The notes beneath the pieces were generated by a model. It was not told where the DNA came from. It worked only from the letters and a program-made list of their open reading frames with translations, and made no database searches. This document shows positions 5,645-44,735 of a stretch of DNA of 64,000 nucleotides, one piece after another. The DNA lies in the NCBI GenBank assembly GCA_964585945.1, contig CAZPGB010000014.1:6912-70911 (forward strand), in the 5' to 3' direction. How positions within the stretch are numbered: position 1 is the stretch's first letter; each line of letters opens with the position of its first letter. The position numbers and the translations under genes were made by a program. Origin of the DNA: an uncultured bacterium. Its GTDB lineage: Bacteria; Eisenbacteria; RBG-16-71-46; CAIMUX01; WJJG01.

Positions 5645-5670
5645 GACGGCAAGGCGCACGCCGGTGGACG

Positions 5671-5733: not shown

Positions 5734-5748
5734 CCGAGCGGCGGAGCG

Positions 5749-6042: not shown

Positions 6043-6066
6043 CCTTCCTCCTCAACGTGTTCCGCC

Positions 6067-20549: not shown

Positions 20550-21169
20550 CACGCCGACTCCATCAGCATGCGCACGTCCTGGTCGTCCAGGTCCCGCCAA
20601 TGGTGGTACGCCTCGGCCACCGCCCGGAAGCCGGCCGGCGTGTAAAGCACCACGACCTCATCCGCGTGCTGTCGCATCCGGCGCGCTGCGCGCGGCCCCG
20701 CCACCGGAGTGGCCACGATCACCTTTGCCGCGGCCTCGTTGCGGCAGCACCGGACCGCAGCGATCATGGTCGAGCCCATTGCGATGCCGTCATCCACGAG
20801 CACCACGGTGCGGCCGGCGAGGGAGGGCAGGGGGCGGCCGCCGCGCAGCGCCTCGCGCCGCTCAGCGGCCACGCGCTCCTGGGTCTCGATGATCTGGTCG
20901 AGCGCCGCGCGGGACACGCAGGCCTCCGCTTCGGGGATGAGATAGACGTTGCCGTCCTCGGCGATGGCGCCGAATCCCGCTTCCGGGTTGTCCGGGAAGG
21001 GGAGCTTCCGCGAGATCAGCAGATCGAAGTCGGCCTCCAAGAGGCGGGCGGCCTCGAAACCGACGGGCACGCCCCCGCGCGGGATCGCCAGGATCAGGGG
21101 ATCCTCCGGCTGGTATTGCCTGAGCGCCGCGCCCAGCTTGTTGCCGGCGTCTCTGCGATCGGCGAACAT
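20549..21169 (-). CDS. Phosphoribosyltransferase-domain protein (COG1926-like)
   Basis: MFADRRDAGNKLGAAL N-terminus. VVLVDDGIAMGSTM PRPP-binding motif. Confidence 0.7.
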   Translation of the reverse strand: MFADRRDAGNKLGAALRQYQPEDPLILAIPRGGVPVGFEAARLLEADFDLLISRKLPFPDNPEAGFGAIAEDGNVYLIPEAEACVSRAALDQIIETQERVAAERREALRGGRPLPSLAGRTVVLVDDGIAMGSTMIAAVRCCRNEAAAKVIVATPVAGPRAARRMRQHADEVVVLYTPAGFRAVAEAYHHWRDLDDQDVRMLMESA

Positions 21170-21219
21170 GGGTTCCACGTGACCAAAATGCATATGTGCA
21201 CCTTCTTGGACGCCGCCGT

Positions 21220-21729
21220 TCAGCGCAGCACGCGCAGACAGGCGTCTACGAATGCCGGGATGTCATCGGGCATCCGGCTCGAGATCAGATTGCCGTCACG
21301 GACAACCGGTTCATCGCGGTATTCGGCGCCGGCGTTCTCGAGGTCCTTGCGGATCGACTTCCATCCGGTCACGGTTCTGTCGCGCAGCACATCGGCCGTG
21401 ATCAGCAACTGGGGACCGTGGCAGATCATGAAGACCGGCTTGTCGGCCTGCACGAACTCTTTCACGAAGGAGACCGCTGAGTCAAGAACCCTCAACCGAT
21501 CGGGAGCATACCCTCCCGGAATGAAGAGAGCGTCGAACTCCTTGGGATCGGCGTCGTCCACCTTGCGGTCAAGCACGGCCGAGTCTTGATTGCGCTTGCC
21601 CACGATCTCGATGCCGGCCTCCGGGCCGAGCAGCGTCAGTTCGTGACCCGCCTTGCGAAATTGCTCCGCGGGCTGCGAATACTCCTTGTCCTCGAAGAGA
21701 CGATCGATGAGTACGGCGATCTTGGCCAT
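21220..21729 (-). CDS. DJ-1/PfpI family protein
   Basis: ...FIPGG... and ICHGPQLL nucleophile-elbow Cys motif. Confidence 0.85.
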   Translation of the reverse strand: MAKIAVLIDRLFEDKEYSQPAEQFRKAGHELTLLGPEAGIEIVGKRNQDSAVLDRKVDDADPKEFDALFIPGGYAPDRLRVLDSAVSFVKEFVQADKPVFMICHGPQLLITADVLRDRTVTGWKSIRKDLENAGAEYRDEPVVRDGNLISSRMPDDIPAFVDACLRVLR

Positions 21730-21801: not shown

Positions 21802-22485
21802 CTAAGGCGAGGCGGTCAGGGGCTCGGACACCGTCAGGCGGCTGTTGATCTGGCGCACCCCGGCCGTGTAATGGGCGATTTCGGTAGCTGCGCGCACCGA
21901 GGCCTGCGAAGGGAGCTGTCCCCACAACGTTACCACGCCCTGATCCACCTCGACCTTGACCATGGTGGCCGCGACGAGCGCATTGCGATCGAGCGCCGCG
22001 AGGATATCCTCCGCAATGGCCTGATCGGACGACAGACGGGTGGGGACAATCGTCAGACGGTTGTCGACCTTGCGAACCCCGCCGGCGTACGAGCAGAAGC
22101 GACCGGCGAGATCCTTCTTCCAGTAGCTCGTCACTGAGCCCGAGAGTGTCACGAACCCGTCGCGGACCGAGACCTCGATCTCCTGGTCGCTCAGGCTGGA
22201 GTTGGATGTCAGCAGCGACTCGACCGTGGCCTTGATCTGCTCATCCGTGACCGGGCTGGCGGGGCTACCGGCCTGCACGACGATGCTGTTCTCTACCGTG
22301 TGCACTCCGGGGACATTCCGGGCATCCTCTTCCGCGGCCCCGACGCTCTGGTAGACGGGGACGGTGCCGCTCAGGCGGGCGCGTCCCTGGCGGACCTCGA
22401 CGGTGATTCGGGACGCATCGACCCGATCGTCCCAAACGAGCTGTTCGACGATGGTTCTCTTGATCTGCTCATCCGATAATTGCAC
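21802..22485 (-). CDS. BON-domain protein (three BON repeats)
   Basis: Repeats of ...V.V..G.V.LSG.V... Confidence 0.8.
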   Translation of the reverse strand: MQLSDEQIKRTIVEQLVWDDRVDASRITVEVRQGRARLSGTVPVYQSVGAAEEDARNVPGVHTVENSIVVQAGSPASPVTDEQIKATVESLLTSNSSLSDQEIEVSVRDGFVTLSGSVTSYWKKDLAGRFCSYAGGVRKVDNRLTIVPTRLSSDQAIAEDILAALDRNALVAATMVKVEVDQGVVTLWGQLPSQASVRAATEIAHYTAGVRQINSRLTVSEPLTASP

Positions 22486-22533: not shown

Positions 22534-22929
22534 CTACGAGACCTCGATGCTCTTGGAGCTCTGCCACAGGCCGTGGATATTGCACAGACTTGTGGCGTAG
22601 AGCGTGCCCGGCTTGTCCGTCTTGAACTTGAGCGCCATCTCATGGTGGGTATAGACACCGCTGGTGTCCGGGCCCTTGGCGGACTCGCCGTGGGCATGAA
22701 ACTCGGCGCGCCCGATTTGGTAGGGGAACTTCTCCTTCTCCGGATGGAAGAACACCTGGATCCAGCGGATGTGGTGCGCGGTCTCGTTCGGGTGGGCGAC
22801 TTCCTTTCCCAGCGTGACCGTCACGGGGAACATCGCGCCCTTCTCCACCTTGTCCGGTGCGTCGATGACGGGCACGTGCTTTTCGGTCTTCCAGTCGTCG
22901 CTTTGATAGAGTTTGCTGATGTCGGCCAT
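22534..22929 (-). CDS. Superoxide reductase (1Fe-SOR / neelaredoxin-type desulfoferrodoxin)
   Basis: KHVPVI, HPxxxxHHIRWI, CNIHGLW Fe-ligand motifs. RBS AGGAGGAA. The ORF-track N-terminal extension is not used. Confidence 0.85.
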   Translation of the reverse strand: MADISKLYQSDDWKTEKHVPVIDAPDKVEKGAMFPVTVTLGKEVAHPNETAHHIRWIQVFFHPEKEKFPYQIGRAEFHAHGESAKGPDTSGVYTHHEMALKFKTDKPGTLYATSLCNIHGLWQSSKSIEVS

Positions 22930-23172
22930 CTGAGGTTCCTCCTGTTCGAGCCAAACGTCCTGCCTTCCGCGCGAGCGCGAGAGTTGGTTCGCCAACCAGG
23001 CGGCGGACTTCTCCTGCCTACGCTCTGACGCCCAAAGCTAGCGAGCCCGGCCGCGCCGTCCAACCGGGGAGCCGCCCAACAGGACCCTGGGGGATGCCCC
23101 ACACGCCGAGTCGATTGTTGCGGGAACCACGGATTCCGCTTCCCATACAAATCTCGGGCTCGGTGGGTGGGC

Positions 23173-23311: not shown

Positions 23312-23752
23312 CTATTTGATTTCGATGCGACTCTGCTCCGTTTCGCGGCTCTTCTCCATCTTCATGCGCAGTACGCCGTCTTCGAGTTTCGCGTCGACTT
23401 GCTGAGGGTCGACGGCGGCGGGAAGGGTCAGCAATCGCTCCACGCGGGCATAGCGACGCTCGTTGAGGTGGCGCGTGCCCTTGGGAGGCTCGGACTCTCT
23501 CTCGGCCATGATGTGCAGCTCGTTGCCATCCAGCCGGACCTCGATCTCGTCCTTCTTGAATCCAGGCATCTCGGCGTCCACATAGACGTTCTTGTCGTCC
23601 TCATTGACGTCGACCGGGTATTCCCCCCGCGGGAGGTCCTCAGGCAACACGGTCCCCCGCCAGGGCTCGAGCATGCGGCTGAACGCGAGCGGAACATAAT
23701 CGAACGGATCCGACCAACGTGACAGAGCTCTACGCCGGGGTGCTGGCAGCAT
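23312..23752 (-). CDS. Hsp20/alpha-crystallin family small heat-shock protein
   Basis: Alpha-crystallin domain (...YVDAEMPGFKKDEIEVRLDGNELHI...G.L.M...). Start at the internal ATG preceded by AAGGAGG. Confidence 0.85.
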   Translation of the reverse strand: MLPAPRRRALSRWSDPFDYVPLAFSRMLEPWRGTVLPEDLPRGEYPVDVNEDDKNVYVDAEMPGFKKDEIEVRLDGNELHIMAERESEPPKGTRHLNERRYARVERLLTLPAAVDPQQVDAKLEDGVLRMKMEKSRETEQSRIEIK

Positions 23753-23912
23753 AGAGACCTCCTTTCCGTGCAAATGCGAGTCGGCAACCCTCAAGACCGC
23801 CCCGGCGCATCTCTCGCATCTCTATTCTCTCTCCGGCCTCATTGTTGCCTCCGGCCTGCAACCGGCTCCATCCGGCCCAGGCTGGTTGCGGCGAGGGAAA
23901 CCGTCCGAGCGG

Positions 23913-23938: not shown

Positions 23939-25096
23939 TCAGGCAGCGAAGTTCCGGGGCAGGTCGTCTTCGCCCTCAAGTTCCAGCTTGACCGACAGGA
24001 ACCGCAGGAGGTCCTTCAGCACCAGGATGCCGTGCAGCTTGCCGCCCTCGGCGACGATGAGGCGGCTGATGTGGTTGCGGCCCATTCTCGCCAGAGCCTT
24101 GGTGGCGTCCGTGTCGGGCGCAATCGTGTTCGCATCCGAACAGGACTGGGCGATCTCACCGACGGTGTGCTGGCTCCATTCGGTGCGGGGCACTTCCTTT
24201 ACGTCCCGCGTGGTGACGCAGCCCACCAGACGATCCTTATCCACGACCGGGTACAGCTTGAAGTGATGGCGGTAGACGTAGTCTTCGACGAATTCGCCGA
24301 CGGACAGCTCGGGAGGAACCGAGACGGGATCGTTGTTCATGAACCGCCGGACCGACTCGCCCTGCAGCGCGCGCCGCACGAGGAGCTGCTGGTAACTCTG
24401 CTGGGCGACCGAGCGGATGAACAGCCCGATGAGAATCCACCAGAGGCCCCCGATCGGATTCAGCAGCAACAGGTTGACGAACCCCAGCGCCACCAGGGCG
24501 ATGCCGAACCCCGATCCGACGCGCGAAGCAGAATGGGTCGCGGCCCGCAGATCACCCCTCTTCTTCCATAGGATTGCCCGCAAAACGCGCCCACCGTCCA
24601 AGGGGTACCCCGGAATCATGTTGAAGACGACGAGCACGCCATTGATGTATCCGATCCATTGCAGCACGGCGTTGACCGTCGCAGGCCATCCCCACGAACC
24701 GCCGAGGGCTGAAAGCGCCAGGAAGAGGCCCATGATAACGACGCTGGCGGCGGGCCCTGCGAGTGCCATGCGCAGCTCCGCCTGAGCGCTGGGAGGCTCG
24801 TCGGTCATTTCCGCCACGCCGCCGAAGAGGAACAGGGTGATGCCTTTCATCGGGAGCCCCGACCGCCGGGCGACGAGAGAATGAGACAACTCGTGGACGA
24901 TGATGGAGAGGAAGAGTCCCACGGCCGCGATCAGGCCCATCACGCCGTACTGCCACCACCGTAGTCCTTCGATCTGCTCGGGGAACACCCCTGCCGCGAG
25001 CGACCAGACCACCAGTCCCAGGATCAACAGCCAGCTCAGATCGATTCTCACGGCGAAGTCGAACATCTTGAAAAGCGTGATTCGCTTGCCGAACAT
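23939..25096 (-). CDS. Site-2 protease (M50) family zinc metalloprotease with a C-terminal CBS domain pair
   Basis: HELSH zinc motif in a TM helix. Multiple TM segments. Tandem CBS domains at the C-terminus. Confidence 0.85.
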   Translation of the reverse strand: MFGKRITLFKMFDFAVRIDLSWLLILGLVVWSLAAGVFPEQIEGLRWWQYGVMGLIAAVGLFLSIIVHELSHSLVARRSGLPMKGITLFLFGGVAEMTDEPPSAQAELRMALAGPAASVVIMGLFLALSALGGSWGWPATVNAVLQWIGYINGVLVVFNMIPGYPLDGGRVLRAILWKKRGDLRAATHSASRVGSGFGIALVALGFVNLLLLNPIGGLWWILIGLFIRSVAQQSYQQLLVRRALQGESVRRFMNNDPVSVPPELSVGEFVEDYVYRHHFKLYPVVDKDRLVGCVTTRDVKEVPRTEWSQHTVGEIAQSCSDANTIAPDTDATKALARMGRNHISRLIVAEGGKLHGILVLKDLLRFLSVKLELEGEDDLPRNFAA

Positions 25097-25302
25097 CCGT
25101 CACTCCCTTCCTCAGTCCTCATCGCGAGCGCAGCCCTCATTGGGAGCGCACCTTCCGTGAAGAGACCCGTCGAACAGCCATGAGAATCGGGAATCGGGCT
25201 GCGCTCGCGGCGAGGTTGTTGGTCTCTTCACCATCATCAAACAAGTTGGCAGTTGTCCGAAGCCCTCTCAATCGGTGTGCGGCCGCGCGCACCCATGGGG
25301 AA

Positions 25303-25328
25303 CGACCTGATCCACTGCGATCAGGTCG
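25303..25328. promoter_or_regulatory. Perfect 10-bp palindrome CGACCTGATC-N6-GATCAGGTCG in the divergent promoter region upstream of the response regulator
   Basis: Read from the sequence. Candidate operator for a dimeric regulator. Confidence 0.4.
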
Positions 25329-25595
25329 GAGAACAGAATGGGGCACCGCGGGCAAGGGGAAAGGGAGCGCCACGGGGTAGGGGAATCCCCCAAATCTGGC
25401 TCACCAGTGCTCTAAGTGACGAAATACGGTCCCATTGGCGGACCTACACGTCTCGCGCACTGGTTCTCGCGCCCCGGCTGCGGTAGACTGTGGCAACCGA
25501 GATAGGAGTGATGAGATTTCGGGCGGCCGCTCGCGCACGCATGTCCGAGTCGGCGGCCAAGCTCCGGTTGAGGGCTCTAGAAGGGAGATAGGGCG

Positions 25596-26258
25596 ATGCG
25601 CAGCCAAATTCAGAGTCGCACGAAGGTCTTGCTCGTCGACGATCATCCGATCGTTCGCAGGGGATTGGCCAAGCTGCTGGACGAGCGTACCGGGATCGAG
25701 GTCGTTGGTGAGGCCGGCGACGCCGCCGAGGCGCTCGACCACATCGCCAAGAACCGCCCCGATCTGGTCATTGTCGACATCTCCTTGAAAGACGTGGGCG
25801 GGATCGAGCTCATCAAGCAGATTCGCGCCTTGGACAAGGACATCCGTTTGCTCGTCTGTTCGATGCACGATGAGAAGCTCTACGCCGAGCGCGTGCTGCA
25901 GGCTGGGGCTCTGGGCTACATCAACAAGGAAACCGCGACTGAACGCATCTTCGACGCCATCGAGCAGGTGATGGCCGGCAGGGTCTACTTGAGCCCCGAG
26001 ATGTCCGAGCATCTTCTGAGCCGCATGGTCGGCGGCGAGCCGGCATCGGACAAGACCTCGATGGAAACGCTCTCCGATCGGGAGCTCGAGGTGTTCGAGC
26101 TCATCGGCCGCGGCATGACCACGCGCCAGATTGCGGAGAAGCTGCACCTGAGCGTCAAGACGATCGAGACGTATCGCGAGAACCTGAAGATCAAGTTGAA
26201 CCTGGCCAACAGTCCGGAGTTGATCCGCGCGGCCGTGCAATGGTTGGAGACCCGCTGA
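25596..26258 (+). CDS. Two-component response regulator, NarL/LuxR family (REC + HTH)
   Basis: LLVDDHPIVRRGL...DLVIVDISL... receiver. C-terminal LSDRELEVFELIGRGMTTRQIAEKLHLSVKTIETYR LuxR HTH. No cognate kinase adjacent. Confidence 0.9.
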   Translation: MRSQIQSRTKVLLVDDHPIVRRGLAKLLDERTGIEVVGEAGDAAEALDHIAKNRPDLVIVDISLKDVGGIELIKQIRALDKDIRLLVCSMHDEKLYAERVLQAGALGYINKETATERIFDAIEQVMAGRVYLSPEMSEHLLSRMVGGEPASDKTSMETLSDRELEVFELIGRGMTTRQIAEKLHLSVKTIETYRENLKIKLNLANSPELIRAAVQWLETR

Positions 26259-26325
26259 TCCGGCGTCCCTGAAGCCCGGAAGCGTTGCGGGCGGTTCCTT
26301 GGAGATCCCTGGAGAGTCGTGGCTG

Positions 26326-26526
26326 TCAGCCGGTTCTCTTCACGACGATGGCCTGGCTGGGGCATTCGGCCGCGACGCGGATGCAGTCACGCTCGAGCTC
26401 CGGCGGAATGCGATCCACCTGAACCCGCGCCTTCTTGCTGCCCTCCTGGAAGCGGAAGATGTTGGGCAGCCGCATCACGCACACGCCCGCGCCGGTGCAC
26501 TTGTTCTGATCAACCCTGACTTCCAT
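26326..26526 (-). CDS. Ferredoxin (single-cluster, 3Fe-4S/4Fe-4S type)
   Basis: 66 aa. CTGAGVC...CP cluster motif. RBS AAAGGAG. 45 nt downstream of the GH65 gene on the same strand. Confidence 0.7.
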   Translation of the reverse strand: MEVRVDQNKCTGAGVCVMRLPNIFRFQEGSKKARVQVDRIPPELERDCIRVAAECPSQAIVVKRTG

Positions 26527-26571
26527 TTGCCAACTCCTTTGTCCGGCGCCGGCCGAGATTGAAGTGTCGCG

Positions 26572-29034
26572 CTACGAGCTCCTGTTTGACGTGGACTCCG
26601 CCGCGGTGGTCACCGGCTCACCGCGACGTCCGGGCAGCTCGAACGTGATCGATTGCCCGGCCCGCAGGCGGGACTGCTCACCGCGACAGACAACCCGAAT
26701 CGCTCCCGCATCCTTATCTCGCGCGGTGATGGTAACCTCTCGTTGCGAGACGTGCACCCTCAGAGATTGCTTGCGATAGCGCATCGAGAACCTGAGCGAA
26801 TCGATGCCTTCCGGCAGTGCTGGATTGAGCCAGAGCGTGTCGCCCCGGGTTTCGATGCCCGTGTAGTTGCGCTGGACCAGGTCGACCGTGCCGGCCATGG
26901 CGCCCAAATGAATGCCCTCCGGCGTAGTCCCGCCCTGGATGTCGGCGATGTCGGCTTCCAGCGCTTCATTGAACAGCTCCCAGGCGCGGTGACGGTCGGA
27001 CCGGGCCAGGACCCACGCATGCACGACATGGCTGAGCGTCGAACCGTGCGGGGTGCGCTTCAGATAATAGTGAACATTGCGGGGAATCATCTCCGGTTCC
27101 CAGGGCAGATTGAGGCGTTCGAACATCTCCTCCAGCTCCTCGGCCGAGAAGAGGTAGAAGAGCATCAGGACGTCCGCCTGCTTCGACACCTTGTAGGCAT
27201 TGGGGGAATCCCCCTCGGCCTCCAGGATGCGATCCAAGCGCTGGATGTTCCCATAGCGCTTGCGGTAGCCTTTCCAGTCGAATTCCTTCAGGTCTCGGTA
27301 TCCCTCGAACTGGCTGATGATGCCGTCTTCATCGATGATGACGCGCAGCTTGCGGCTGATCTCGGCCCACTCCTCAATCTCGGCGTCGTCCAGCTTCAAC
27401 TTGTCGCGGATGGCGGAGCAGCACTCCTCGGGCAGAATGCCCAGGACCTCGAGCGCGCGGCAGAGCACCCAGGCCGCCATGACATTTGTGTAGGCGTTGT
27501 TGTCCAGCCCGGGCTTGTCCGAGCCAGGGAGCTTGTCATGGTATTCGTCGGGCCCCATCACTCCGCAGATCTCATACCGGTCGAGCGCCGAGTTGTACGT
27601 GGCCAGACTGGCGAAGAGCCGGGCGATCTCGAGAATCATCTCGGCGCCGGTCCAGATCAGAGATTCCCGATCGTCGGTGACCTGGTAGTGCTGCCACACG
27701 TTGTAGGCGATGGCCGCATTGACGTGCCGCTGGAGGTGGGTGTTGTCCCGGATCCAGTGCTTCGACTTGGGGTTCAGGTGCAACACCTGGCTCTCCTCGC
27801 GACCGTCGCTGCCGCTCTGCCACGGGTACATGGCCCCGCGCAGCCCTGCTGCGCGCGCCGCCGCCCGGGCTTCTTCGAGCCGCCGGTAGCGGTAGCTCAG
27901 AACGGCCCGAGTGATCTCGGGCATGCGGAGATTGAGGATCGGCACGATGAACATCTCGTCCCAGAAGATGTGCCCGCGGTAGGCCTCGCCGTGCAGGCCG
28001 CGGGCCGGCACGCCGACGTCGAGACCGACGATGTTGGGAGAGGCGGTCTGCAGCATGTGGAACATCTGCAGGTGGAGGACCATCGACGTGTGCATGGTCT
28101 GCTCTTCGTCCGACCCCCTGAGCTCCAGATCGAAGCGGTGCCACAGATGAAACCAGGCGGTGGCCTGCTCCCGAGCCAGCACGTCGAAGCGCTTCACGCG
28201 ACGCAGCTCCTTGACAGCCGCCAGGCTGCATTCCGAGATGGCGTGGTCACGAGACGTGTAGAGGGTCACCCGCTTCTCGACGACGAGCGTCTTGCCCTCC
28301 GCCACGTGTCCCTGGAAATACTGGGCCACGTAGGCTGCCTCTCCGGCAACGGTCTCGGGCCCTGAGAGGGATTGCCCGTCGACGTTCGCCCGTGTACGGG
28401 CCGCTTGAGCAATCTCGATACGGGACTGATTGGTGCGCACCCGCAGCAACATGCCGTCGTCCAGCGGCCGGGCCTCGAGGGGCTCCAGGTGCTTGCTCTC
28501 CAGCGCGCGGTAGCGCGCCACACCGTCGTTGATCACCCGACCGTCGAGCGCGGAGCGCACCTGTACCTCCCCGGACCAGTTCTCCGGGGTGAAGGCGATT
28601 TCGAGCGCGCCCACATGGGGGTTCTCCATGTGGACGATGCGCCGAGCTTCATAGCGCGTGATGCGTCCTCGGTCGTCACGGAAGCGAATCTGGCGGCGCA
28701 ACATCCCCTTGCGCAGGTCGAGGTCCTGTCGATAGGAGAGCAGCTCGACACTCTCGAAGTCGATCCACCCATCGCGCCCGATGCGAAAGGAGACCGGCAG
28801 CCAGTTGGGGAGGTTCACCAGGTCTTCGTTCTCGACGACGTGATTCTCGATCTCGGTCTGGCGGCGATTGTACCCCCCGGCCAGATAGGTGCCGGGGTAA
28901 TGGACGTCGTCGTTGCGAGACTCCTCCCCGGCGCCACGGGTCGCGAAATACCCGTTTCCCAGGGTGCAGAGGGCCTCACGCAGCTTCTCTTCCTCCGGGC
29001 GAAAGCCATCGTACGTCAGATGCCAGGTCGACAA
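26572..29034 (-). CDS. Glycoside hydrolase family 65 disaccharide phosphorylase (trehalose/kojibiose/maltose phosphorylase-like)
   Basis: About 820 aa with GH65 N-terminal, central catalytic (alpha/alpha)6 and C-terminal domains. Overlaps the upstream HAD fusion gene by 19 nt. Confidence 0.85.
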   Translation of the reverse strand: MSTWHLTYDGFRPEEEKLREALCTLGNGYFATRGAGEESRNDDVHYPGTYLAGGYNRRQTEIENHVVENEDLVNLPNWLPVSFRIGRDGWIDFESVELLSYRQDLDLRKGMLRRQIRFRDDRGRITRYEARRIVHMENPHVGALEIAFTPENWSGEVQVRSALDGRVINDGVARYRALESKHLEPLEARPLDDGMLLRVRTNQSRIEIAQAARTRANVDGQSLSGPETVAGEAAYVAQYFQGHVAEGKTLVVEKRVTLYTSRDHAISECSLAAVKELRRVKRFDVLAREQATAWFHLWHRFDLELRGSDEEQTMHTSMVLHLQMFHMLQTASPNIVGLDVGVPARGLHGEAYRGHIFWDEMFIVPILNLRMPEITRAVLSYRYRRLEEARAAARAAGLRGAMYPWQSGSDGREESQVLHLNPKSKHWIRDNTHLQRHVNAAIAYNVWQHYQVTDDRESLIWTGAEMILEIARLFASLATYNSALDRYEICGVMGPDEYHDKLPGSDKPGLDNNAYTNVMAAWVLCRALEVLGILPEECCSAIRDKLKLDDAEIEEWAEISRKLRVIIDEDGIISQFEGYRDLKEFDWKGYRKRYGNIQRLDRILEAEGDSPNAYKVSKQADVLMLFYLFSAEELEEMFERLNLPWEPEMIPRNVHYYLKRTPHGSTLSHVVHAWVLARSDRHRAWELFNEALEADIADIQGGTTPEGIHLGAMAGTVDLVQRNYTGIETRGDTLWLNPALPEGIDSLRFSMRYRKQSLRVHVSQREVTITARDKDAGAIRVVCRGEQSRLRAGQSITFELPGRRGEPVTTAAESTSNRSS

Positions 29035-30611
29035 CGCTTGGCCTCCATGAGCAGTCGTTCCAGCTTGTCCAGGTATTCACGCACGGAATCCGGGTCGTCC
29101 AAGGCGTGGGTGGCGTAGGTCCGCTCGGGCCCGCCCTTGACCGCGATCGCGACTCCGTCGTCGACCAGCATCTCAAAGACATCCTCATCGGTCACATCGT
29201 CCCCGATGTGGAGGGTGAGCGTGTGCTCGGGGTCGAGCTCCTGCACGTCGCGGATGTACTCCACGGCCTTGCCCTTGTGCCAATCCACATCGGGACCCAG
29301 GTCGAAGACTTTCCGGCCCGTCGAGAGCCTCAGATCCGGATGATCGGCCGTCACCTTGCGAACGTCTTCCGCCACCACATCGACCAGTTTCGGATCGACC
29401 TGTCGCACGTGCACGGCCAGCGAGAGGCCCTTGCGCTCGAGACTCGCTCCCGACACGCGGGCCACGACTCGGCGGAGCTGCTCTTCCGCCTGATCCAAAG
29501 ACGGCAGCGCGCCGCGGGCCTCCTCGTGGATGAAGTGCTTCGAGTCCGGCCCCTGGATCTCGAAGCCGTGGCTGCCGGCATACCAGATCTCCGCAATGCC
29601 CACGCGGGGCTTGACGTCGTCCAGGTCGCGGCCGCTGACTACCGCAGTGGGTGTGCAGCGCGCCAGGCGGGCGAGCACCGCACGTGTCGGCAGAGGTAGT
29701 TCCGCGTCCTGCGGGCGAGGGACGATGGGTGACAGCGTCCCGTCGAAGTCGAGGAAGACGGCGAGCCGTCGTTCGCCCAAAGTCTCAATGAGTTGGTCGA
29801 GGGCCTCCATCGCGTTCGGGAGATCGGCTTTGCGCCGGGGACGGTCGGCGCCATCGGGGTCTGCGAGACGCAGCTCTTCCAGGTCCTCGACCACGACATC
29901 GGCGCCGCCGCCGAGCAATTCCTCACGATTCGAATCGCGCGCCACCCCGATGACGCATCCGAAGCCGCCTTTTCGCCCTGCCGCGACGCCCGACACCGCA
30001 TCCTCGATCACAACGGCGCGCTCGGGCGGGGCCTTCAGACGCTTGGCTGCCTCCTCGAAGGTGTCGGGCTCAGGCTTCCCCGGAAGATGGAGTTTCTCGG
30101 CCTCGACGCCGTCGATCACCGCGTCGAACAGCGCGGAGACATCGGCGGCTTCGAGCAGCACCCGGGCATTCTTGCTCGAGGAGACCAGAGCCAAACGGAA
30201 GCCCCGATCACGAGCCTGCTTGAGCAGGTCCACGGAACTCTGAAAGACTTCGACACCTTCCTTGCGAATGCGCTCGCGGAACTTCTCGTTCTTGTGGTTT
30301 CCGATTCCGCAGATGGTCTCCCGGTCGGGGGGATCATCCTTTGACCCCCAGGGGAGCGAGATGCCCCGCGACTCGAGAAATGTCTTGACGCCTTCGTAGC
30401 GCGGGCGGCCATCGACGTATTTCAGATAGTCGGTTCGCAGATCAAAGGGCTCTTGCGACTGCCCGGTGCGACCTACATAGCTGGAAAGAAACTCATCAAA
30501 GACCTCCTTCCACGCTGCCGCATGCACGGTGGCCGATTGCGTGATCACACCGTCGAGGTCCGCGACGATGGCGTCGTAGGCGTCGCGTGAGATGGCTGGA
30601 TCATCGGACAT
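29016..30611 (-). CDS. Fused beta-phosphoglucomutase-like HAD domain + trehalose-phosphate-phosphatase-like HAD-IIB domain
   Basis: N-terminal ADLDGVITQS...KPEPD... (beta-PGM-type HAD-IA). C-terminal AVFLDFDGTLSPIV...GDD.TDE (T6PP/OtsB-type). Confidence 0.75.
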   Translation of the reverse strand: MSDDPAISRDAYDAIVADLDGVITQSATVHAAAWKEVFDEFLSSYVGRTGQSQEPFDLRTDYLKYVDGRPRYEGVKTFLESRGISLPWGSKDDPPDRETICGIGNHKNEKFRERIRKEGVEVFQSSVDLLKQARDRGFRLALVSSSKNARVLLEAADVSALFDAVIDGVEAEKLHLPGKPEPDTFEEAAKRLKAPPERAVVIEDAVSGVAAGRKGGFGCVIGVARDSNREELLGGGADVVVEDLEELRLADPDGADRPRRKADLPNAMEALDQLIETLGERRLAVFLDFDGTLSPIVPRPQDAELPLPTRAVLARLARCTPTAVVSGRDLDDVKPRVGIAEIWYAGSHGFEIQGPDSKHFIHEEARGALPSLDQAEEQLRRVVARVSGASLERKGLSLAVHVRQVDPKLVDVVAEDVRKVTADHPDLRLSTGRKVFDLGPDVDWHKGKAVEYIRDVQELDPEHTLTLHIGDDVTDEDVFEMLVDDGVAIAVKGGPERTYATHALDDPDSVREYLDKLERLLMEAKRCRPGI

Positions 30612-31123
30612 GAGTCGCACACCCCATTCCTGGTAGGCGGCGCGCCGACGAGCGGGCGGGGGGCTCTGAGAGTCGAGCTGCCCCCGTGCGCCCAGAGCGC
30701 GCTGCGGTGAATCGAGTTCGAAAGTCTCATTCACGCTAGGATCTGCGAACGAGGACAGCAACCGGGGTGAGCCGCCCTCACGGCTTGGGGGATCGCCCTA
30801 GGACCGAGGCCCAGCCGACGGACGCCGCTCGTTGGGGCGAAGGACTGGTCGTTTGTCGGCGGCCATGCGTGCAGAGGTCACAGTCGCGGAACCGCGCGCG
30901 CTGCCGCCGGAAGTGGGGGAGCACATGCGAACGGTGTCGGGGAAAGTCCCAATTGACGGCCGCGCCGAACTCTTGCCACGCGGGTCGGTTGTTAATGCTG
31001 TAAGTTCGGTGATGGGTGTTAAGCTCGATGACGATGTGCAAGACCCGAAGAGCTTCCCCTCCAGTTGGGTGGCGGACAACACCTCCCGAACCGAAAACGA
31101 TGCAATTGGAAGGAGGTTGGACG

Positions 31124-31729
31124 ATGTTCCGTAGGACGCAGTGGAAGCGTAGAGCGGCCGCACTGGCGTTCTTGCTCGTGACGGCGATTCTGGTCGGTGT
31201 CGCTTGCGAAGACGAGGAGACCGCGAAACCGGATGATCAGCTTCCCACCGTCCCGGATTTCGCGCTGGAAGACATCAATCCCCACTCGCCGACCTATGGG
31301 CAGATCGTGTCGGTGCAGGATTTCCCGGGACAGATGCTCTTGATCTTCTACGCCCCGGTCAAGGACTCCCTCGGCCGGTCGACGTTCGACAGCCTCGCCG
31401 TGATCGTCGATCAACTGGCGCAGCAGGGGGTGCCGAATGTGACGCCGATCATGATCAATCCCTGGTCGTCGCGGACCGAGCTCGATACGCTTTATCTTCG
31501 TGAGAACGTGACCTCTCCATTTCCCGTTCTGCAGGATGTCTGGGACGAGGTCAACGAGGCAAACCTCGTGGGCCACATGCTGCAACTCGAGGACTACCAC
31601 GACTTCATGATTGCCGACCGCCGTCACAACATCTGGAAGAAGGTGCGCATCGGGGAAGACGGCGATCTGGATCTGCGCGACCGGGATGACATGGGCATGT
31701 TGCGCAGGTGGATTCAGGGTGCCTACTGA
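31124..31729 (+). CDS. Putative lipoprotein, thioredoxin-fold-like but lacking a CxxC
   Basis: Signal peptide with lipobox-like LVGVAC. RBS GGAGG. No catalytic cysteines. Confidence 0.5.
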   Translation: MFRRTQWKRRAAALAFLLVTAILVGVACEDEETAKPDDQLPTVPDFALEDINPHSPTYGQIVSVQDFPGQMLLIFYAPVKDSLGRSTFDSLAVIVDQLAQQGVPNVTPIMINPWSSRTELDTLYLRENVTSPFPVLQDVWDEVNEANLVGHMLQLEDYHDFMIADRRHNIWKKVRIGEDGDLDLRDRDDMGMLRRWIQGAY

Positions 31730-31740
31730 TTCAATAGAGG

Positions 31741-32616
31741 CTACTTGCCCAGAGACTCGCGGCTGGCGATGATGTCCAGCAGTTCGGCGGTGATGGCCTG
31801 CTGGCGCTGCTGGTTGTGCCGTTTGGTCAGCTCCTCTAGGCGCTCGCCGATGTCCTTTTCGGCCACCTGCATGGAGGCCAATCGGCTGGCCTGTTCGCTG
31901 GCCAACGATTCGGCCAGGGCGCGGAAGACCACCACGAAGAGATACTGCTGGATCAGGCGTCCGGTGAGCTTGCCCCTGTCCATGCGATACATGGGCAGCG
32001 AGCGGGACTCCCAGGGCCGTTGGGCGAGCTCCTGCAGCCATGTCATGTCGAGTGGCCACAGGGGAACTCTTTCAGGTTCGTAGGATGCTCCCGAGCGCCG
32101 GCGGTTGTGGAAGAGCAGAATGCGACCCGCGCCGTTTTCCCGGCGCCACTTCTCCGCCTGCACCAGGATTCGGGCTACCGAATCGGTGATGCCTGTCGCC
32201 GAATGGGGCACCTCCAACCGGCGCTCTGTCTCGAGCCCGGCGTTGTGCAGCCGAGCGGCCACACGCTCGCCGACGGCCAGAACGACCGCCGGACCACTGC
32301 GATCCTGGGTTAGGTGACGCTCCGCGAAGGCGGCGATGTCGTCGTTGAATTGCCCGCACATGCCCTGGTCGGAGCCGACGACGATGGCGGCCACCTGCGA
32401 CCCGGTGGGCTCCAGTTCGCGCGGGCGGCCGGCGTGTGAGTCGCGTAGGACGATCTGGAGCCCCATCTCCACCGTCTCGCGCCAGAGTCCGACGGCGTCC
32501 GCGGCGCGCTCGTACTGACGAATGCTCGCGGCGGCCAGCGCCTTCATGCTCTTGACGACCGACTGCAGGTCCTCGGTGCTCTCCAATCGTCTCTTGAGAG
32601 CGTTGAGCGTCTCCAT
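31741..32616 (-). CDS. atpG: F-type ATP synthase gamma subunit
   Basis: Gamma N- and C-terminal helices (...LKRRLESTEDLQSVVKSMKALAA...; ...ITAELLDIIAS). Confidence 0.9.
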   Translation of the reverse strand: METLNALKRRLESTEDLQSVVKSMKALAAASIRQYERAADAVGLWRETVEMGLQIVLRDSHAGRPRELEPTGSQVAAIVVGSDQGMCGQFNDDIAAFAERHLTQDRSGPAVVLAVGERVAARLHNAGLETERRLEVPHSATGITDSVARILVQAEKWRRENGAGRILLFHNRRRSGASYEPERVPLWPLDMTWLQELAQRPWESRSLPMYRMDRGKLTGRLIQQYLFVVVFRALAESLASEQASRLASMQVAEKDIGERLEELTKRHNQQRQQAITAELLDIIASRESLGK

Positions 32617-32623
32617 GGCCGCC

Positions 32624-34171
32624 TCATCGATCCATCTCGCCGAGGACTCGGCGTGCCTGGTTCAGGACCGCTTCCTGGTCCTCGGAGGCGAAATCCTCTC
32701 CGGCGAGAATGCGCTCGCTCTGATCCTCCAGGCGACGCGGTACTTCGGTCTGAATCTCCTCCACCGCGTCGGCCACGCGCTCGAGCGGCAGGTCGTCGAA
32801 GAGCCCCTGATTGAGCGCCAGCAGAACCGCGATCTGCTCCGGAACGGAGCGAGGGTGGTACTGGGGCTGTTTGAGCACCTCGCGCACGCGTCGTCCACGG
32901 GCCAACGTGCGCTGCGTGTCTTCATCCAAGCGCGCGCCGAACCGGGCGAAGGACTCGAGCTCTTCGAACTGGGAATATGCCAGCCGAAGGTCCCCGGCCA
33001 CGGCCCGGTACGCTTTCAACTGGGTCTTGCCGCCCACGCGCGAGACCGACCGGCCCACATCGACCGCGGGGAGCACCCCGCGGCGCATCAAATCGGGCGA
33101 CAGATAGATCTGCCCGTCGGTGATCGAGATCAGGTTGGTGGGAATGTAGGAGGAGATGTTCTGGGCCTGGGTCTCGATGATCGGCAGGGCCGTGACCGAG
33201 CCTCCGCCCTTCCTGTCGCGCACGTGCGTGGCCCGCTCGAGCAGGCGCGCGTGGATGTAGAAGATGTCCCCGGGGTATGCTTCGCGGGCGGGCGGGCGCC
33301 GCAGCAGGAGAGAGAGCTCCCGGTAGGCGCGCGCGTGGCGCGAGAGGTCGTCGAAGACCACCAGGGCATCTTCACCGCGCTCCATGTAGTACTCGGCCAT
33401 GCAGATGGCTGCATAGGGGGCGATGTACTTGAGGCCCGGCGGCTCCTCCCCTGCCGCGAAGACCACCGTGCAGTGGTCCATGGCATGGTGGGCACGTAGG
33501 TCCGCGACCACGCGCGCCACGGCGGTCGCCCGCAGACCGATGGCGCAGTAGATGCAGCGCACGTTCTTGTCACGTTGATGGATCATCGTATCGACGGCGA
33601 TGGCCGTCTTGCCGGTCTGGCGGTCGCCGAGGATCAGCTCGCGCTGGCCGCGTCCGATGGGGATCAGCGCATCCACGACCCGCAGTCCGGTCTGCAGGGG
33701 GACCGAGACCGGCGCGCGGTCGAGGATGGCCGGGGCATCACGCTCGATGGGCCGACGCTCGTCAGCATCGACCGGCCCGCCATGGTCGAGCGGCCGACCG
33801 GTGGGATCGACCACGCGGCCGAGCAGACCGTCGCCGACGGGGACGTCGACGACGCGGCCCGTGCGCCGCACCGTGCTCCGCGCGCGGATCTGGTCCCACG
33901 TGTCCAACAGAACGACGCCCACCCGGTCGGGACGAAGATTGAGCGCCATCCCGCGCAGGCCGCCCTGGAAGCGAACCAGCTCTTCGGCGCCGACACCGGG
34001 CAGCCCGTCCACATGCGCCACCCCGCGGCCCACGTCACGCACGACGCCGACCTCCTCCACGCGCAGCCGGGGCGGATCGCCTTCCAGGGCTTCTTCCAGC
34101 GAAGCGGCCACGGGCGGCAGCACGCGCTCCAGGGCGCCGCGGTCGGGATTCCTTCGCCCGGCGTCAGCCAT
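32624..34171 (-). CDS. atpA: F-type ATP synthase alpha subunit
   Basis: [11 protein letters not shown] Walker A. Start at the internal ATG with GAGGAG RBS, overlapping atpF by 8 nt. Confidence 0.9.
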
Positions 34172-35003
34172 CGCGCTGCTCCTCGTCTCGGGACTCGTCC
34201 TCCTGGTCGGACCGCTCGCGGGGCCCGGCCTGGTGCTTGGAATCCTGCATTGCGGAGAGCTTGGAGCCGACCCGCTGCTCCAGGTCATCCAGGTAGCGAT
34301 CGAGGCTCCATGAAAGTCGATGTCCGGCCGCGGCGACCTCGATCCCGCAGATCAGATCCTGGTCACGCGTGAATTCGATCTCGGCCGATGCACCCATCGT
34401 CTCCTTGAGAGCCGCACGGATCTCGTCGGCCGATTCCTGGGGGAGTTTCGCGGAGCTGCGCACGAGAAGCTTGCCCTCCTTCTCTCCGGCCGCCCGTACA
34501 AAGGCCCGGGTCTGCTCATCATCGGCTTCCTTCAGCTTCCGAACGAATGCGCCCGACATGCGGCGCTCCACCTGGCTGTCGGCCATCTCCCGCAGCGCCC
34601 GGCGTGCGATGGCGATCACCTGCTGTGCCGTCTCGCGCCTCAGGTCCCCGAGGAACCGATCCTGCTGGCGCTTCAGGGCTTCGACCCAGCGCTCGCGCTG
34701 TGCAGCGATTTCCTCTCGCGCCCCGCGGAGTAACCGTTGGCGCTCCTCTTCGGCCTCCTGGCGGGCCTCGCCCAGAAGGTCCTCACGCTGCTCGTCCAGC
34801 TCCCGCTGCTGACGCTGGTATTCGGCCTTCTCCTCGTTGGCCTCGTCCACCCGGCGCTTGGCCTCCTCGCCACGATCGGAGATCCGCCGTTCACGTTCAT
34901 CCATGGCGTGGACGATGCGATCGTAGAGGAGGCGCTTGAGCAAGAAGACCAGAATCGCGAAGTTGACGATTTGGGCCGCGAATGTGAGCCAATCGATCTG
35001 CAC
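34164..35003 (-). CDS. atpF: F-type ATP synthase b subunit, extended (N-ATPase type, delta-like C-terminal region)
   Basis: N-terminal TM helix, long charged coiled coil, extra C-terminal domain. No separate delta gene in the operon. Confidence 0.75.
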
Positions 35004-35014
35004 GTTGGGCCGTC

Positions 35015-35284
35015 CTATTGCTGGGTGAAGAAGCTCCAGAAGGGATTGGCGAAGATCAGGATCACCGCCACGACGAAACAGTAGATGGCGGTCGATTCGA
35101 TCATGGCCATCCCCACGAACAGCGTCCGCGTGATGGTGTTGGATTCATCGGGCTGCTGGGCCAGGGCGGTCAGGGCCTGGGCTAGCGCGCGACCCTCGCC
35201 CAACGCCGGTCCGATGGACCCGATGGCGATCGTGAGTCCGCTGATGACAATCGATCCCAGCGCCACGATATCTGTGCTTTCCAT
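35015..35284 (-). CDS. atpE: F-type ATP synthase c subunit with Na+-binding signature
   Basis: 89 aa. GPALGEG in helix 1 and MIESTAIY in helix 2 (ESTxxY as in the I. tartaricus Na+ c-ring). RBS AAGGAGG. Confidence 0.85.
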   Translation of the reverse strand: MESTDIVALGSIVISGLTIAIGSIGPALGEGRALAQALTALAQQPDESNTITRTLFVGMAMIESTAIYCFVVAVILIFANPFWSFFTQQ

Positions 35285-35313
35285 CTGCAAGCCTCCTTGA
35301 GGGTGTTTCCCGC

Positions 35314-35985
35314 CTATGCGTTCTGTGTTCGCGCGGCGGAGGCGATATAAACCATGGCCAAAACGGCGAAGATGTAGGCGTGGATCTGCCCGATCAGCAG
35401 CTCGAGCGCCTGCATGACCGCCGGAAAGATGAAAGGGGTCACGCTGAGGAGCACGGCGACGATCAGCGTGCCGCTCATCACATTGCCGAACAGCCGGACG
35501 GCGAGCGCCAAGGTGCGCGACAACTCGCCGAGCACGTGAAAGGGGAGCATCAACGGCGAGGGTTGAACGTAGTGCCGTAGGTAGCCACCCACGCCGCGCT
35601 CGGCGATGCCGTAGGCCGGCACGGCGAAGAAGACGCACATCGCCAGGGCGGCCGTGGTGGAGAGCGAGCCGGTCGGCGGGTGGTAGCCGGGCACGATGGC
35701 CAGCAGATTGGAGAGCGAGATGAACAGGAACAGCGTGCCCAGGAACGGGAGGTACCTGGCCGTGCGGCCGCCGGTCACCTCCTCAATCTGATCGCGCATG
35801 TACCCGATGACGGCTTCCAGAAGGGACTGCCAACGGGACTGCGGGGCCTCCACTTCCAACCGACGAGTGGCGAGATAAGCCAACAGGACGAGCAATGCCA
35901 TCACGAGCCAACTGAAGAGGATGGTTGCGTTCAGGCGCAGCGGACCCCACTGGGCGATCAGAATGGCGTCGGGATCGATCTCCAT
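35314..35985 (-). CDS. atpB: F-type ATP synthase a subunit
   Basis: Conserved ...LAVRLFGNVMSG... (stator Arg) and LLIGQIHAYIFAVL. Start taken at the internal Met (MEIDPDAIL). Confidence 0.8.
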   Translation of the reverse strand: MEIDPDAILIAQWGPLRLNATILFSWLVMALLVLLAYLATRRLEVEAPQSRWQSLLEAVIGYMRDQIEEVTGGRTARYLPFLGTLFLFISLSNLLAIVPGYHPPTGSLSTTAALAMCVFFAVPAYGIAERGVGGYLRHYVQPSPLMLPFHVLGELSRTLALAVRLFGNVMSGTLIVAVLLSVTPFIFPAVMQALELLIGQIHAYIFAVLAMVYIASAARTQNA

Positions 35986-36026
35986 CTGCGACTCCCACTT
36001 GTGGTTGGGCCGGACCTGGTCCGGCG

Positions 36027-36317
36027 CTAGACTCTGGGCGCCCTGGGCGCCCAGCGGCGCATCAAGACGATGCGGGCCAGCACGAACCCGGCCAGAACGG
36101 CCAGCACTTCCGGCCATCCCCATCGAATGGCGATGATTGCGATGATCCAGATCACGACCGCAAAGCGGAACAACAGGGCGCCGGCGGTCATCAGAGCGGG
36201 CCAACGCATGGTCGGCAGCGAGCGCGCGGTGAGATAGAGCACACCGAAGTAAAATCCGCCCAGCGCCATGCCGATGACCGCGGAAAGGACCAGCAGCAGC
36301 ACGTCAAGCATCGTCAC
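36027..36317 (-). CDS. atpR: N-ATPase accessory membrane protein AtpR
   Basis: 96 aa, 3 TM with membrane-embedded Arg. Position between atpQ and atpB as in N-ATPase operons. Confidence 0.55.
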   Translation of the reverse strand: MTMLDVLLLVLSAVIGMALGGFYFGVLYLTARSLPTMRWPALMTAGALLFRFAVVIWIIAIIAIRWGWPEVLAVLAGFVLARIVLMRRWAPRAPRV

Positions 36318-36643
36318 CCGGCTCCTCCTCCCGGTGAATCTCCCGGCGTTCGCGCCGCACCCAGAACCAAGCGTTCAAACAGCCGGCAATGACCCCGATG
36401 ATCAGGAAGGTCAACGTCCAGGAGATGGTGGTGCCCGTCCCGGTGACACGGGAATCCAGCCAGATTCCGACAATGACCCCGATCACCGTGGGGATGGCCA
36501 CAGCCCAACCGACGGTACCGAAGGTGCCCAGACCGAACCAGAGGCTGCGGTGCTTGCGTCGCAGGGCGCGAAGCTTCCGCTCCCGCTTTTCATGCGCTGC
36601 CTTGCGAAGCTGCTGCCCAGGGGTGTCGTTGTGACCCGCTGCG

Positions 36644-36651
<8 letters not shown>
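36304..36651 (-). CDS. atpQ: N-ATPase accessory membrane protein AtpQ
   Basis: Small 2-3 TM protein directly after atpC. Start overlaps the atpC stop. Confidence 0.5.
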
Positions 36652-38564
<1,913 letters not shown>

Positions 38565-38790: not shown

Positions 38791-38928
38791 ATGGAGTTGC
38801 CCTTCACCCAGCATGAGTTCTTCCAGGTCTTCGCGGCATACAACGAAGCCGTCTGGCCCATGCAATGGGTGCTCTACGCACTCGCGGCGGGTGGACGCGC
38901 GGACGTGCATAGAGAGGACGACCCATGA
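38791..38928 (+). CDS. Possible 45-aa upstream ORF (MELPFTQHEFFQVFAAYNEAVWPMQWVLYALAAGG...) translationally coupled (ATGA) to the RTPR gene
   Basis: GGGAGG 13 nt upstream. Stop overlaps the RTPR ATG. Hydrophobic/aromatic peptide. No homology support. Confidence 0.3.
   Translation: MELPFTQHEFFQVFAAYNEAVWPMQWVLYALAAGGRADVHREDDP

Positions 38929-40899: not shown

Positions 40900-44735
<3,836 letters not shown>

Follow-up and report, generated by a model that had tools for sequence, protein, structure and literature searches.

We analysed a 64,000-nt window of DNA from an uncultured bacterium of the Eisenbacteria (contig CAZPGB010000014.1, assembly GCA_964585945.1). All coordinates are numbered on this window; homologous loci are labelled L### and homologous proteins P####. 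On its reverse strand lies a cassette of two overlapping genes (Table 1), the first encoding a fusion of a beta-phosphoglucomutase (beta-PGM) domain to a trehalose-phosphate phosphatase (TPP) domain, and the second a GH65 enzyme predicted to be a trehalose-6-phosphate phosphorylase (T6PP). A small ferredoxin gene follows. Trehalose is a central stress protectant; mycobacteria also use it as a precursor of the cell envelope and as a metabolite in drug tolerance. Judging from the sequences, we favour, at a probability of roughly 0.55, the view that this cassette supports synthesis of trehalose from the hexose-phosphate pool independently of nucleotide sugars.

The TTG start of the GH65 gene is preceded by GGAGG at 29046-29042 and the ATG of the ferredoxin gene by AGGAG at 26538-26534, each with a 7-nt spacer, while 45 nt separate the GH65 stop codon from the ferredoxin start. 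The fusion gene and the GH65 gene overlap by 19 nt, and the same overlap is found in the nearest relatives, L046, L047 and L042. This overlap, together with the strong Shine-Dalgarno sequence lying within the upstream gene, suggests that the two genes are translationally coupled and that their polypeptides are made together. A first-pass annotation made from the DNA letters had described both the 19-nt overlap and a small ferredoxin with its own ribosome binding site 45 nt past GH65, and the coordinates agree on each point. Its overall span was likewise essentially right, except that the lower bound of 26326 dropped the last two bases of the ferredoxin stop codon. Two other gene models were rejected. 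A 581-aa version of the fusion is an artefact of choosing the first in-frame start, since alignments of homologues begin at residue 2-13 of the 531-aa form, and the identical NCBI protein (P0001, 100% identity) is likewise 531 aa long. The split into two genes is not a frameshift artefact of a triple fusion either, since the overlap recurs in three relatives, the TTG start has a GGAGG in front of it, and 531 + 820 aa equal the full tri-domain length.

Catalytic domains and substrate specificity

Pfam places HAD/HAD_2 at residues 12-218 of the fusion protein and Trehalose_PPase at residues 286-504. The first-pass annotation had proposed a beta-PGM-type HAD-IA domain fused to an OtsB-like HAD-IIB domain carrying DFDGTLSP (residues 288-295), a description that both Pfam and NCBIfam support. 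The N-terminal domain passes TIGR02009 (the PGMB-YQAB subfamily of the beta-PGM family) narrowly, at 155.5 bits against a cutoff of 153.35. Over 234 aligned residues it is 44.9% identical (E=1e-56) to PDB 8h5s, a structure named beta-phosphoglucomutase. The length of 8h5s and the number of its catalytic Asp lead us to take it for M. tuberculosis Rv3400. Recent in vivo work established that Rv3400 is a beta-PGM, its deletion raising beta-glucose 1-phosphate (beta-G1P) 30-fold. The HAD motifs of both domains are invariant or nearly so in 123 aligned family members, and the cap residues R71 (within DG[KR]PR) and K107-N108 are kept in 122-123 of these 123. Read by motif, these cap residues would correspond to Arg49 and Lys76/Asn77 of L. 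lactis beta-PGM, which we take to be the residues that hold the substrate phosphate.

The C-terminal domain scores 158.7 bits against TIGR00685 (cutoff 68.05) and 165.3 against PF02358 (cutoff 27). Among solved structures it is nearest to PDB 5gvx, which bears the name trehalose-phosphate phosphatase (44.2% identity over 330 aligned residues) and is presumably M. tuberculosis OtsB2. A check for loss of HAD motifs in this domain found them intact and invariant across the 123 homologues. Judged by its sequence, which keeps every motif, the domain is a genuine HAD-IIB phosphatase.

The alignment to 5gvx also extends upstream of the phosphatase domain: residues 92-150 of 5gvx align with residues 188-247 of the fusion, i.e. 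with the end of the beta-PGM-like domain. At HAD motif IV, 5gvx reads VSAH where the fusion reads IEDA, so that the E-D pair is lost. Rhodococcus plasmid copies match the fusion from residue 100-125. OtsB2-type phosphatases and these plasmid copies look like degenerate descendants of beta-PGM-TPP fusions, in the case of OtsB2 because the alignment reaches into a degenerate beta-PGM-like end.

The GH65 enzyme matches PF03636 (3e-71), PF03632 (1e-126) and PF03633 (3e-16), which together cover residues 7-789. Residue roles were taken from a 2024 review of GH65 and specificity positions from De Beul et al. 2021, and both were mapped through a phmmer alignment to CsKP. The catalytic acid is E497 in GPDEYH, which aligns with CsKP E483, and the -1 subsite comprises F357, W358, D359, K618 and Q619. 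R345, Y352, S665, T666 and H709 form the phosphate site, corresponding to CsKP Lys/Arg330, Tyr337, Ser631, Ser632 and His675; the second Ser is a Thr here, as it is in the L. lactis GH65 enzyme and in PDB 9lb6. According to the 2024 review, this phosphate site replaces the catalytic base of hydrolases in the GH65 phosphorylases. The six specificity positions (D71, Q406, G408, Q416, D430 and E607) read DQGQDE, which at positions 64/392/394/402/416/585 is the T6PP signature (GH65 subgroup 22) of De Beul et al. 2021. Position 416 is gap-dependent in the alignment to CsKP but unambiguous against the L. lactis enzyme, which has the same W-x-x-D. All catalytic, -1, phosphate and specificity residues are invariant in 121 close GH65 homologues.

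Among solved structures, 9lb6 is nearest to the window enzyme (E=4e-139), and it shares 63% identity with a 769-aa L. lactis GH65 protein named trehalose 6-phosphate phosphorylase by JGI; we take the latter to be the characterised L. lactis enzyme, TrePP. Although the window enzyme and the L. lactis protein are only 33% identical overall, every active-site, phosphate-site and specificity residue listed above is common to both, and to 9lb6. These residues predict that the window GH65 enzyme is a T6PP. The depositors of 9lb6 (9lb7; P0243, P0288) call it 'Trehalose-6-phosphate hydrolase', yet it is a GH65 protein with a complete phosphate site. A literature search found no paper on 9lb6, and its name may be carried over from the unrelated GH13 enzyme TreC.

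As a control, we considered actinobacterial GH65 enzymes encoded downstream of a stand-alone beta-PGM gene (L015, L018, L024 and L028). These show the trehalose-phosphorylase pattern (T, R, ..., P), and the pairs are presumably of the trehalose-catabolic Rv3400/Rv3401 type, with a long-cap beta-PGM. The proteins (listed under Streptomyces, Agromyces, Nocardia and Chloroflexi) are about 25% identical to the window enzyme. Since the control loci show another pattern and carry no TPP, the specificity motif discriminates between the two groups, and TPP partners the T6P-type GH65 enzyme specifically.

Conservation and gene orders of the module

Homologous loci were collected from genomes, one per species, and from metagenomes in a scan seeded with GH65. 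Full-length beta-PGM-TPP fusions occur at 14 genome loci, drawn from Beta- and Alphaproteobacteria, Desulfobacteraceae, many Bacteroidales, Ilumatobacteraceae and Phycisphaerae. An orthologous GH65 gene (43-59% identity) lies immediately 3' in all 14, so the arrangement is not a matter of chance. The fusion family has >2900 matches, and the best 120 are all 508-671 aa long with the same domains; named carriers include Thiohalobacter, Methylomarinum, Methylohalobius, Syntrophobacteria, Binatia, Aminicenantes and Chlamydiae. The first-pass annotation had called beta-PGM with GH65 classic, which holds, and had regarded the additional phosphatase domain as unusual, which the size and uniformity of this family contradict. 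The three activities are also found both more and less tightly joined than in the window. Triple fusions of beta-PGM, TPP and GH65, such as the 1337-aa P0178, measure 1335-1339 aa and are 59-60% identical to the window GH65, whereas L051 and L052 carry three separate overlapping genes in the window's order. One 1079-aa protein with HAD and GH65 domains is presumably a beta-PGM-GH65 fusion.

All 80 GH65 loci of the metagenome scan read DQGQDE or SQGQDE at the specificity positions. Gene order could be counted in the 43 that had enough flanking DNA. Beta-PGM lies upstream of GH65 in 42 of the 43, and TPP lies beside GH65 in 20, of which 18 have a second order, beta-PGM-GH65-TPP; in L127, the one example examined, the TPP of this order passes TIGR00685. 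A further locus has a TPP nearby on the opposite strand. The beta-PGM and T6PP pair is thus the core of the module, to which TPP has been added in two or more gene orders and in several states of fusion. Truncated TPP remnants that keep the DFDGTLSPIVEDPQ (DFDGTL) motif stand directly after GH65 in L122 (5109-5465) and L129 (about 5022-5102), both counted below among the 22 loci without TPP, and suggest recent loss of the gene.

Annotation of the module is inconsistent and partly wrong. JGI applies 'alpha,alpha-trehalase' both to the fusions and to T6PP-type GH65 enzymes (P0009, P0014, P0125 and many others), while NCBI names the fusion 'trehalose-phosphatase' and its partner 'GH65 family protein'. 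The module is widespread, poorly annotated and built from known enzyme families, and as far as we could find it is uncharacterised. Thiohalobacter and Methylohalobius are salt-adapted, and the list of carriers hints at a bias towards saline habitats. L047 comes from JGI metagenome 3300001533 (record MLSed_10004395), which we read as lake sediment.

Stress-island setting, regulation and the ferredoxin

The genes around the cassette (Table 1) overlap in repertoire with two published gene sets, the low-oxygen-activated lxa locus of Burkholderia cenocepacia and the mycobacterial DosR regulon, which include alpha-crystallin, BON ('phospholipid-binding') proteins, class II ribonucleotide reductase and a cation ATPase. 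The first-pass annotation had seen an osmoadaptation theme in the window; this was roughly right, although the surroundings look more like a general dormancy, low-oxygen and stress island. Related settings recur elsewhere. The N-type F-ATPase operon is directly upstream of the cassette in L046 as well (465-7518), and in Thiohalobacter thiocyanaticus (L043, 2166-9992) the cassette begins 8 nt after atpG, implying a single operon. A betaproteobacterial metagenome-assembled genome (L044) has PolX and a beta-CASP RNase around the cassette, and otsA, otsB and a GH15 trehalase within a few kilobases of it. The cassette is accompanied by a Crp/FNR-type regulator and GH15 in Methylomarinum, by four BON proteins, DJ-1, CsbD and YtxH in L053, and on a Croceicoccus plasmid by a CBS protein, a PfkB-type kinase, GAPDH and PGK. 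One triple fusion is followed by genes for a P-type ATPase, a cation-chloride transporter and baeRF. The cassette is probably expressed together with the dormancy, low-oxygen and ionic-stress island.

Table 1. Features of the window discussed in the text, with the cassette and ferredoxin genes first
Feature	Position	Strand	Remarks
Beta-PGM/TPP fusion gene	29016..30611	-	ATG 30611, stop 29018-29016, 531 aa
HAD-IA beta-PGM domain	29862..30578	-	residues about 12-250; D18xD20, S144-S146, K179, E203-D204; cap R71, K107-N108
HAD-IIB TPP domain	29040..29771	-	residues about 281-524; D288xD290GT, S326GR, K446, G470DDxTDE
GH65 gene	26572..29034	-	TTG 29034, stop 26574-26572, 820 aa
Ferredoxin gene	26324..26526	-	ATG 26526, stop 26326-26324, 66 aa
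Promoter-like element TTGCTG-N17-TAGCGT	30733..30761	-	about 120-150 nt 5' of fusion ATG; putative function
NarL/LuxR-type orphan response regulator	25596..26258	+	Response_reg + GerE; convergent with cassette
P-type cation ATPase	997-3813	-	
baeRF protein (bacterial aeRF1-like)	4175-5338	+	
Six-BON-domain protein	11652-13178	+	
Phosphoribosyltransferase	20549-21193	-	
DJ-1/PfpI	21220-21729	-	
Three-BON-domain protein	21802-22485	-	
Desulfoferrodoxin-type superoxide reductase	22534-22995	-	
Hsp20	23312-23794	-	
M50 protease with CBS domains	23939-25096	-	
N-type F-ATPase operon	31741-38522	-	beta, epsilon, AtpQ-like, AtpR, a, c, b, alpha, gamma; Pfam on beta, AtpQ-like, a, alpha, gamma
Class II ribonucleotide reductase	38925-40880	+	
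PolX	40900-42615	+	
NAD-dependent ligase (LigA)	42702-44735	+	
Na+/H+ exchanger	44797-45975	+	
MscS	47924-49105	+	

Several further observations concern the island itself. Between 997 and 49105 it also holds genes for UPF0182, PEBP, NAPRTase, MacB/LolA-like and ZIP proteins; the window has 65% G+C, and its LolA-like, MacB and Omp85 genes mark a lineage of the Gram-negative type. At the island edge, a 539-aa fusion (50856-52475, + strand) joins LacAB_rpiB (ribose-5-phosphate isomerase B) to transaldolase, two enzymes of the non-oxidative pentose-phosphate pathway. The 1.1-kb gap between the N-ATPase operon and the cassette (30612-31740) holds a 237-aa open reading frame (31016-31729, + strand) with a GTG start, a third-codon-position G+C (GC3) of 0.75 and no Pfam match, whereas L046 has an OsmC gene between operon and cassette that the window lacks. 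baeRF genes stand a few kilobases from the cassette in unrelated loci, namely the window, L046 (21639-22460) and L048 (19291-19740).

With respect to regulation, a k-mer comparison found TTGNNN-N17-TAGCGT[C/G] upstream of the orthologous gene in L046, L047 and L042. Conservation of this putative element in the three closest relatives suggests that the cassette has a promoter of its own. The window contains no other exact match, although a copy with one mismatch (TTGGAC-N17-TAGCTT, 23035-23063, - strand) lies 5' of the superoxide reductase gene; one further upstream-region copy is too little to define a regulon. A generic sigma-70 scan of 25500-31800 called zero promoters, the element at 30733-30761 included, blastn found no conserved blocks in the 1.1-kb region upstream of the cassette relative to L046, and Rfam gave only chance-level matches in 25000-32000. 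The convergent response regulator stands without a neighbouring histidine kinase; among solved structures, it is nearest to M. tuberculosis DevR/DosR (3c3w, E=3e-31). It keeps its position in L046, L047 and L042 at 84-87% identity, compared with 62-76% for the neighbouring enzymes, and is a candidate regulator of the island. The Mtb-type DosR box GGGACTNNAGTCCC, allowing <=2 mismatches, matched the window twice against 3.6 expected, with neither match near island genes, so there is no evidence for a mycobacterial-type operator.

The ferredoxin has Fer4_15/Fer4_13 domains and the ligand pattern C10-T-G-A13-G-V-C16 ... C55-P56, which points to a single [3Fe-4S] cluster with the second Cys replaced. 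In the PDB it resembles small ferredoxins of Thermotoga and Pyrococcus as well as a mycobacterial protein named 'possible ferredoxin'. A generic hairpin scan of 25500-31800, uninformative by itself on co-transcription, found no terminator-like hairpin between GH65 and the ferredoxin gene. Since the two genes share a strand and are separated by 45 nt with no hairpin, the ferredoxin gene is probably co-transcribed with the cassette in this lineage. The same features, its own ribosome binding site, its retained position in L046 and the ferredoxin gene fdxA beside otsB1 of M. tuberculosis could be taken to mean that it is a functional partner, exerting redox control over the sugar enzymes or performing a redox step, and the first-pass annotation had counted it as part of the operon module. 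Comparison of neighbourhoods went the other way. By GH65 identity the nearest relatives are L046 (74%) and L047 (73%), and an orthologue (76% identity, same position, same ligand pattern) is found in L046 only. In L047 and L042 the gene is absent and the convergent response regulator directly abuts GH65, and no homologue was found among the remaining genome loci or the 75 metagenome loci whose downstream sequence was available, about 100 further loci altogether. Furthermore, none of the three reactions involves electron transfer, and we know of no member of the three enzyme families that binds ferredoxin. We therefore regard a functional partnership as very improbable; the ferredoxin is probably a passenger of the stress island without a role in the sugar chemistry, and could plausibly carry low-potential electrons for other island genes such as the superoxide reductase.

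A putative route from glucose 6-phosphate to trehalose

Beyond the residue-level enzyme assignments and the gene clustering, our account of the cassette is inference. The beta-PGM domain would convert glucose 6-phosphate (G6P) to beta-G1P, and the GH65 enzyme, operating in reverse, would join beta-G1P to G6P to give trehalose 6-phosphate (T6P) and inorganic phosphate (Pi). The TPP domain would then convert T6P to trehalose and Pi, an irreversible step that would pull the two reversible ones forward. The net reaction would be 2 G6P to trehalose and 2 Pi, without a nucleotide sugar. A protectant sugar made at no UTP or ATP cost beyond G6P would suit the stress-island setting. We infer the synthetic direction because it is the only arrangement that makes the three activities sequential, with TPP acting after GH65; in the catabolic direction, TPP would compete with the phosphorylase for T6P. 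No trehalose phosphotransferase system (PTS), trehalose-acting sugar kinase or sugar transporter adjoins the cassette in any tabulated locus.

The proposed route borrows from several known systems without coinciding with any. With L. lactis TrePP/PgmB (EC 2.4.1.216 and beta-PGM) the cassette shares the two enzyme families, the metabolite beta-G1P and identical GH65 key residues, but the Lactococcus pair is catabolic and fed by a trehalose PTS, whereas the window has no PTS, a TPP fused to its beta-PGM, and stress genes as neighbours. As in the OtsA/OtsB pathway, T6P would be the intermediate and a homologous HAD-IIB phosphatase would carry out the final step, although T6P would come from beta-G1P through GH65 rather than from UDP- or ADP-glucose through a GT20 synthase. 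The Rv3400/Rv3401-type pair likewise has a long-cap beta-PGM (45% identity to 8h5s) with GH65 directly downstream, but in the actinobacterial loci compared (L015, L018, L024 and L028) the latter is of the trehalose-phosphorylase type and no TPP is attached. T6PP has been run synthetically with beta-G1P and G6P in vitro, in cascades of maltose phosphorylase and T6PP with or without beta-PGM. Those including beta-PGM (one of them a three-enzyme cascade) gave T6P yields of 55-80%, and a 2026 cascade, which its authors term 'new-to-nature' and 'coenzyme-free', reached 93%. Unlike the window cassette, these systems are engineered, start from maltose and end at T6P. A 2025 review of T6P metabolism treats TrePP as solely degradative, an enzyme of Gram-positive bacteria and fungi, and none of the trehalose or T6P routes that it lists uses TrePP biosynthetically. 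Our searches of the searchable literature found nothing that links TrePP or beta-G1P with TPP or OtsB1, or that describes this route.

The M. tuberculosis protein OtsB1 (Rv2006) presumably combines HAD, TPP and GH65 domains, and we take its gene to adjoin a ferredoxin gene, fdxA (Rv2007c). OtsB1 is described as a 1327-aa TPP homologue of the DosR regulon that carries a glycosyl hydrolase label and has no assigned function. Hypoxia and starvation induce it, carbon-starved cells are the only ones in which it was detected, and it is 'yet to be biochemically characterized'. Its reported length is like that of the triple fusions of beta-PGM, TPP and GH65 (1335-1339 aa). The window module differs from it in being split into two overlapping genes, with a domain order colinear with that of the triple fusions. 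We offer OtsB1 as a lead, a possible fused counterpart of the cassette, set beside it by its published length and annotation and by its presumed domains.

Several findings weigh against trehalose synthesis. The beta-PGM domain, in addition to its narrow margin over TIGR02009, falls below the strict beta-PGM equivalog TIGR01990 (92.5 versus 189.4 bits). The beta-PGM equilibrium favours G6P and would hold steady-state beta-G1P low. In 22 of the 43 metagenome loci, beta-PGM and a T6PP-type GH65 enzyme occur without any TPP within 4 kb. The module can thus do without TPP, and its core pair may be catabolic or homeostatic. With otsA, otsB and GH15 near the cassette in L044, at least some hosts have a classical source of T6P. 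OtsB1 has been reported to lack TPP activity, and its deletion had no obvious phenotype. Finally, the only physiologically characterised T6P phosphorylase, L. lactis TrePP, works catabolically with beta-PGM, and the Rv3400-type beta-PGM acts in trehalose catabolism in M. tuberculosis. The last two facts, the 22 loci without TPP and the content of L044 are also what favours the main alternative, namely that the cassette disposes of T6P or keeps it in balance. T6P made by OtsA or imported would then have two parallel sinks, energy-conserving phosphorolysis with beta-PGM on the one hand and TPP-dependent release of trehalose on the other, and the cassette would set the balance of T6P, trehalose and G6P or recover carbon from trehalose, instead of synthesising trehalose de novo. 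However, fusions normally join consecutive steps, so competing sinks in one polypeptide, let alone in a triple fusion, would be odd. A PTS or kinase that could supply T6P from external trehalose is absent at all loci tabulated, and the neighbouring genes speak of stress protection and not of carbohydrate uptake. We consider T6P disposal unlikely, although it is the alternative to be taken most seriously.

Two other alternatives change the substrate or the chemistry of the GH65 enzyme, and the residues at its active site bear on both. Were it a hydrolase, as the name given to its best PDB match would have it, the cassette would degrade T6P with water to glucose and G6P. This is improbable, since the window enzyme and 9lb6 both keep the whole phosphate set (Arg, Tyr, Ser-Thr, His), 9lb6 shares these residues with the L. 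lactis protein named a phosphorylase, and a hydrolase would yield no beta-G1P and leave the beta-PGM partner without purpose. Alternatively, the substrate might be another phosphorylated alpha-glucoside, e.g. glucosylglycerol-phosphate, with the TPP-like domain as the matching phosphatase. GH65 does include a 2-O-alpha-glucosylglycerol phosphorylase, HAD-IIB phosphatases accept several sugar phosphates, and the N-ATPase, Na+/H+ exchanger and MscS provide a setting of ionic stress. Against this, the glucosylglycerol phosphorylase structure 4ktp matches far more weakly (E=7e-68) than the TrePP group does (E=4e-139), all six specificity positions are of the T6PP type and invariant, and the phosphatase domain both scores above the cutoff of the trehalose-phosphatase equivalog and shares 44% identity with 5gvx. 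We regard a different glucoside as highly doubtful. The first-pass annotation had suggested a compatible solute of either the trehalose or the glucosylglycerol type; trehalose in a stress context remains the best reading, whereas the specificity positions and the TPP equivalog contradict the second type.

Taken together, these findings favour trehalose synthesis by the cassette. A broader proposal, to which we give slightly less than even odds, is that this represents a natural and so far unrecognised G6P-only trehalose pathway, widespread in environmental bacteria and used in dormancy, low-oxygen and salt-stress islands, of which OtsB1 is the triple-fused form. If true, this would add to the known trehalose pathways one that needs no UTP or ATP beyond G6P and so fits energy-starved, non-growing cells. 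The cascade published as 'new-to-nature' would already exist in nature, and the natural enzyme sets, including the single-polypeptide triple fusions, would be available for cofactor-free production of T6P or trehalose. Given the inconsistent annotation at present, genomes would also have to be scored differently for trehalose capacity. For M. tuberculosis, it would provide OtsB1 with a concrete and directly testable function.

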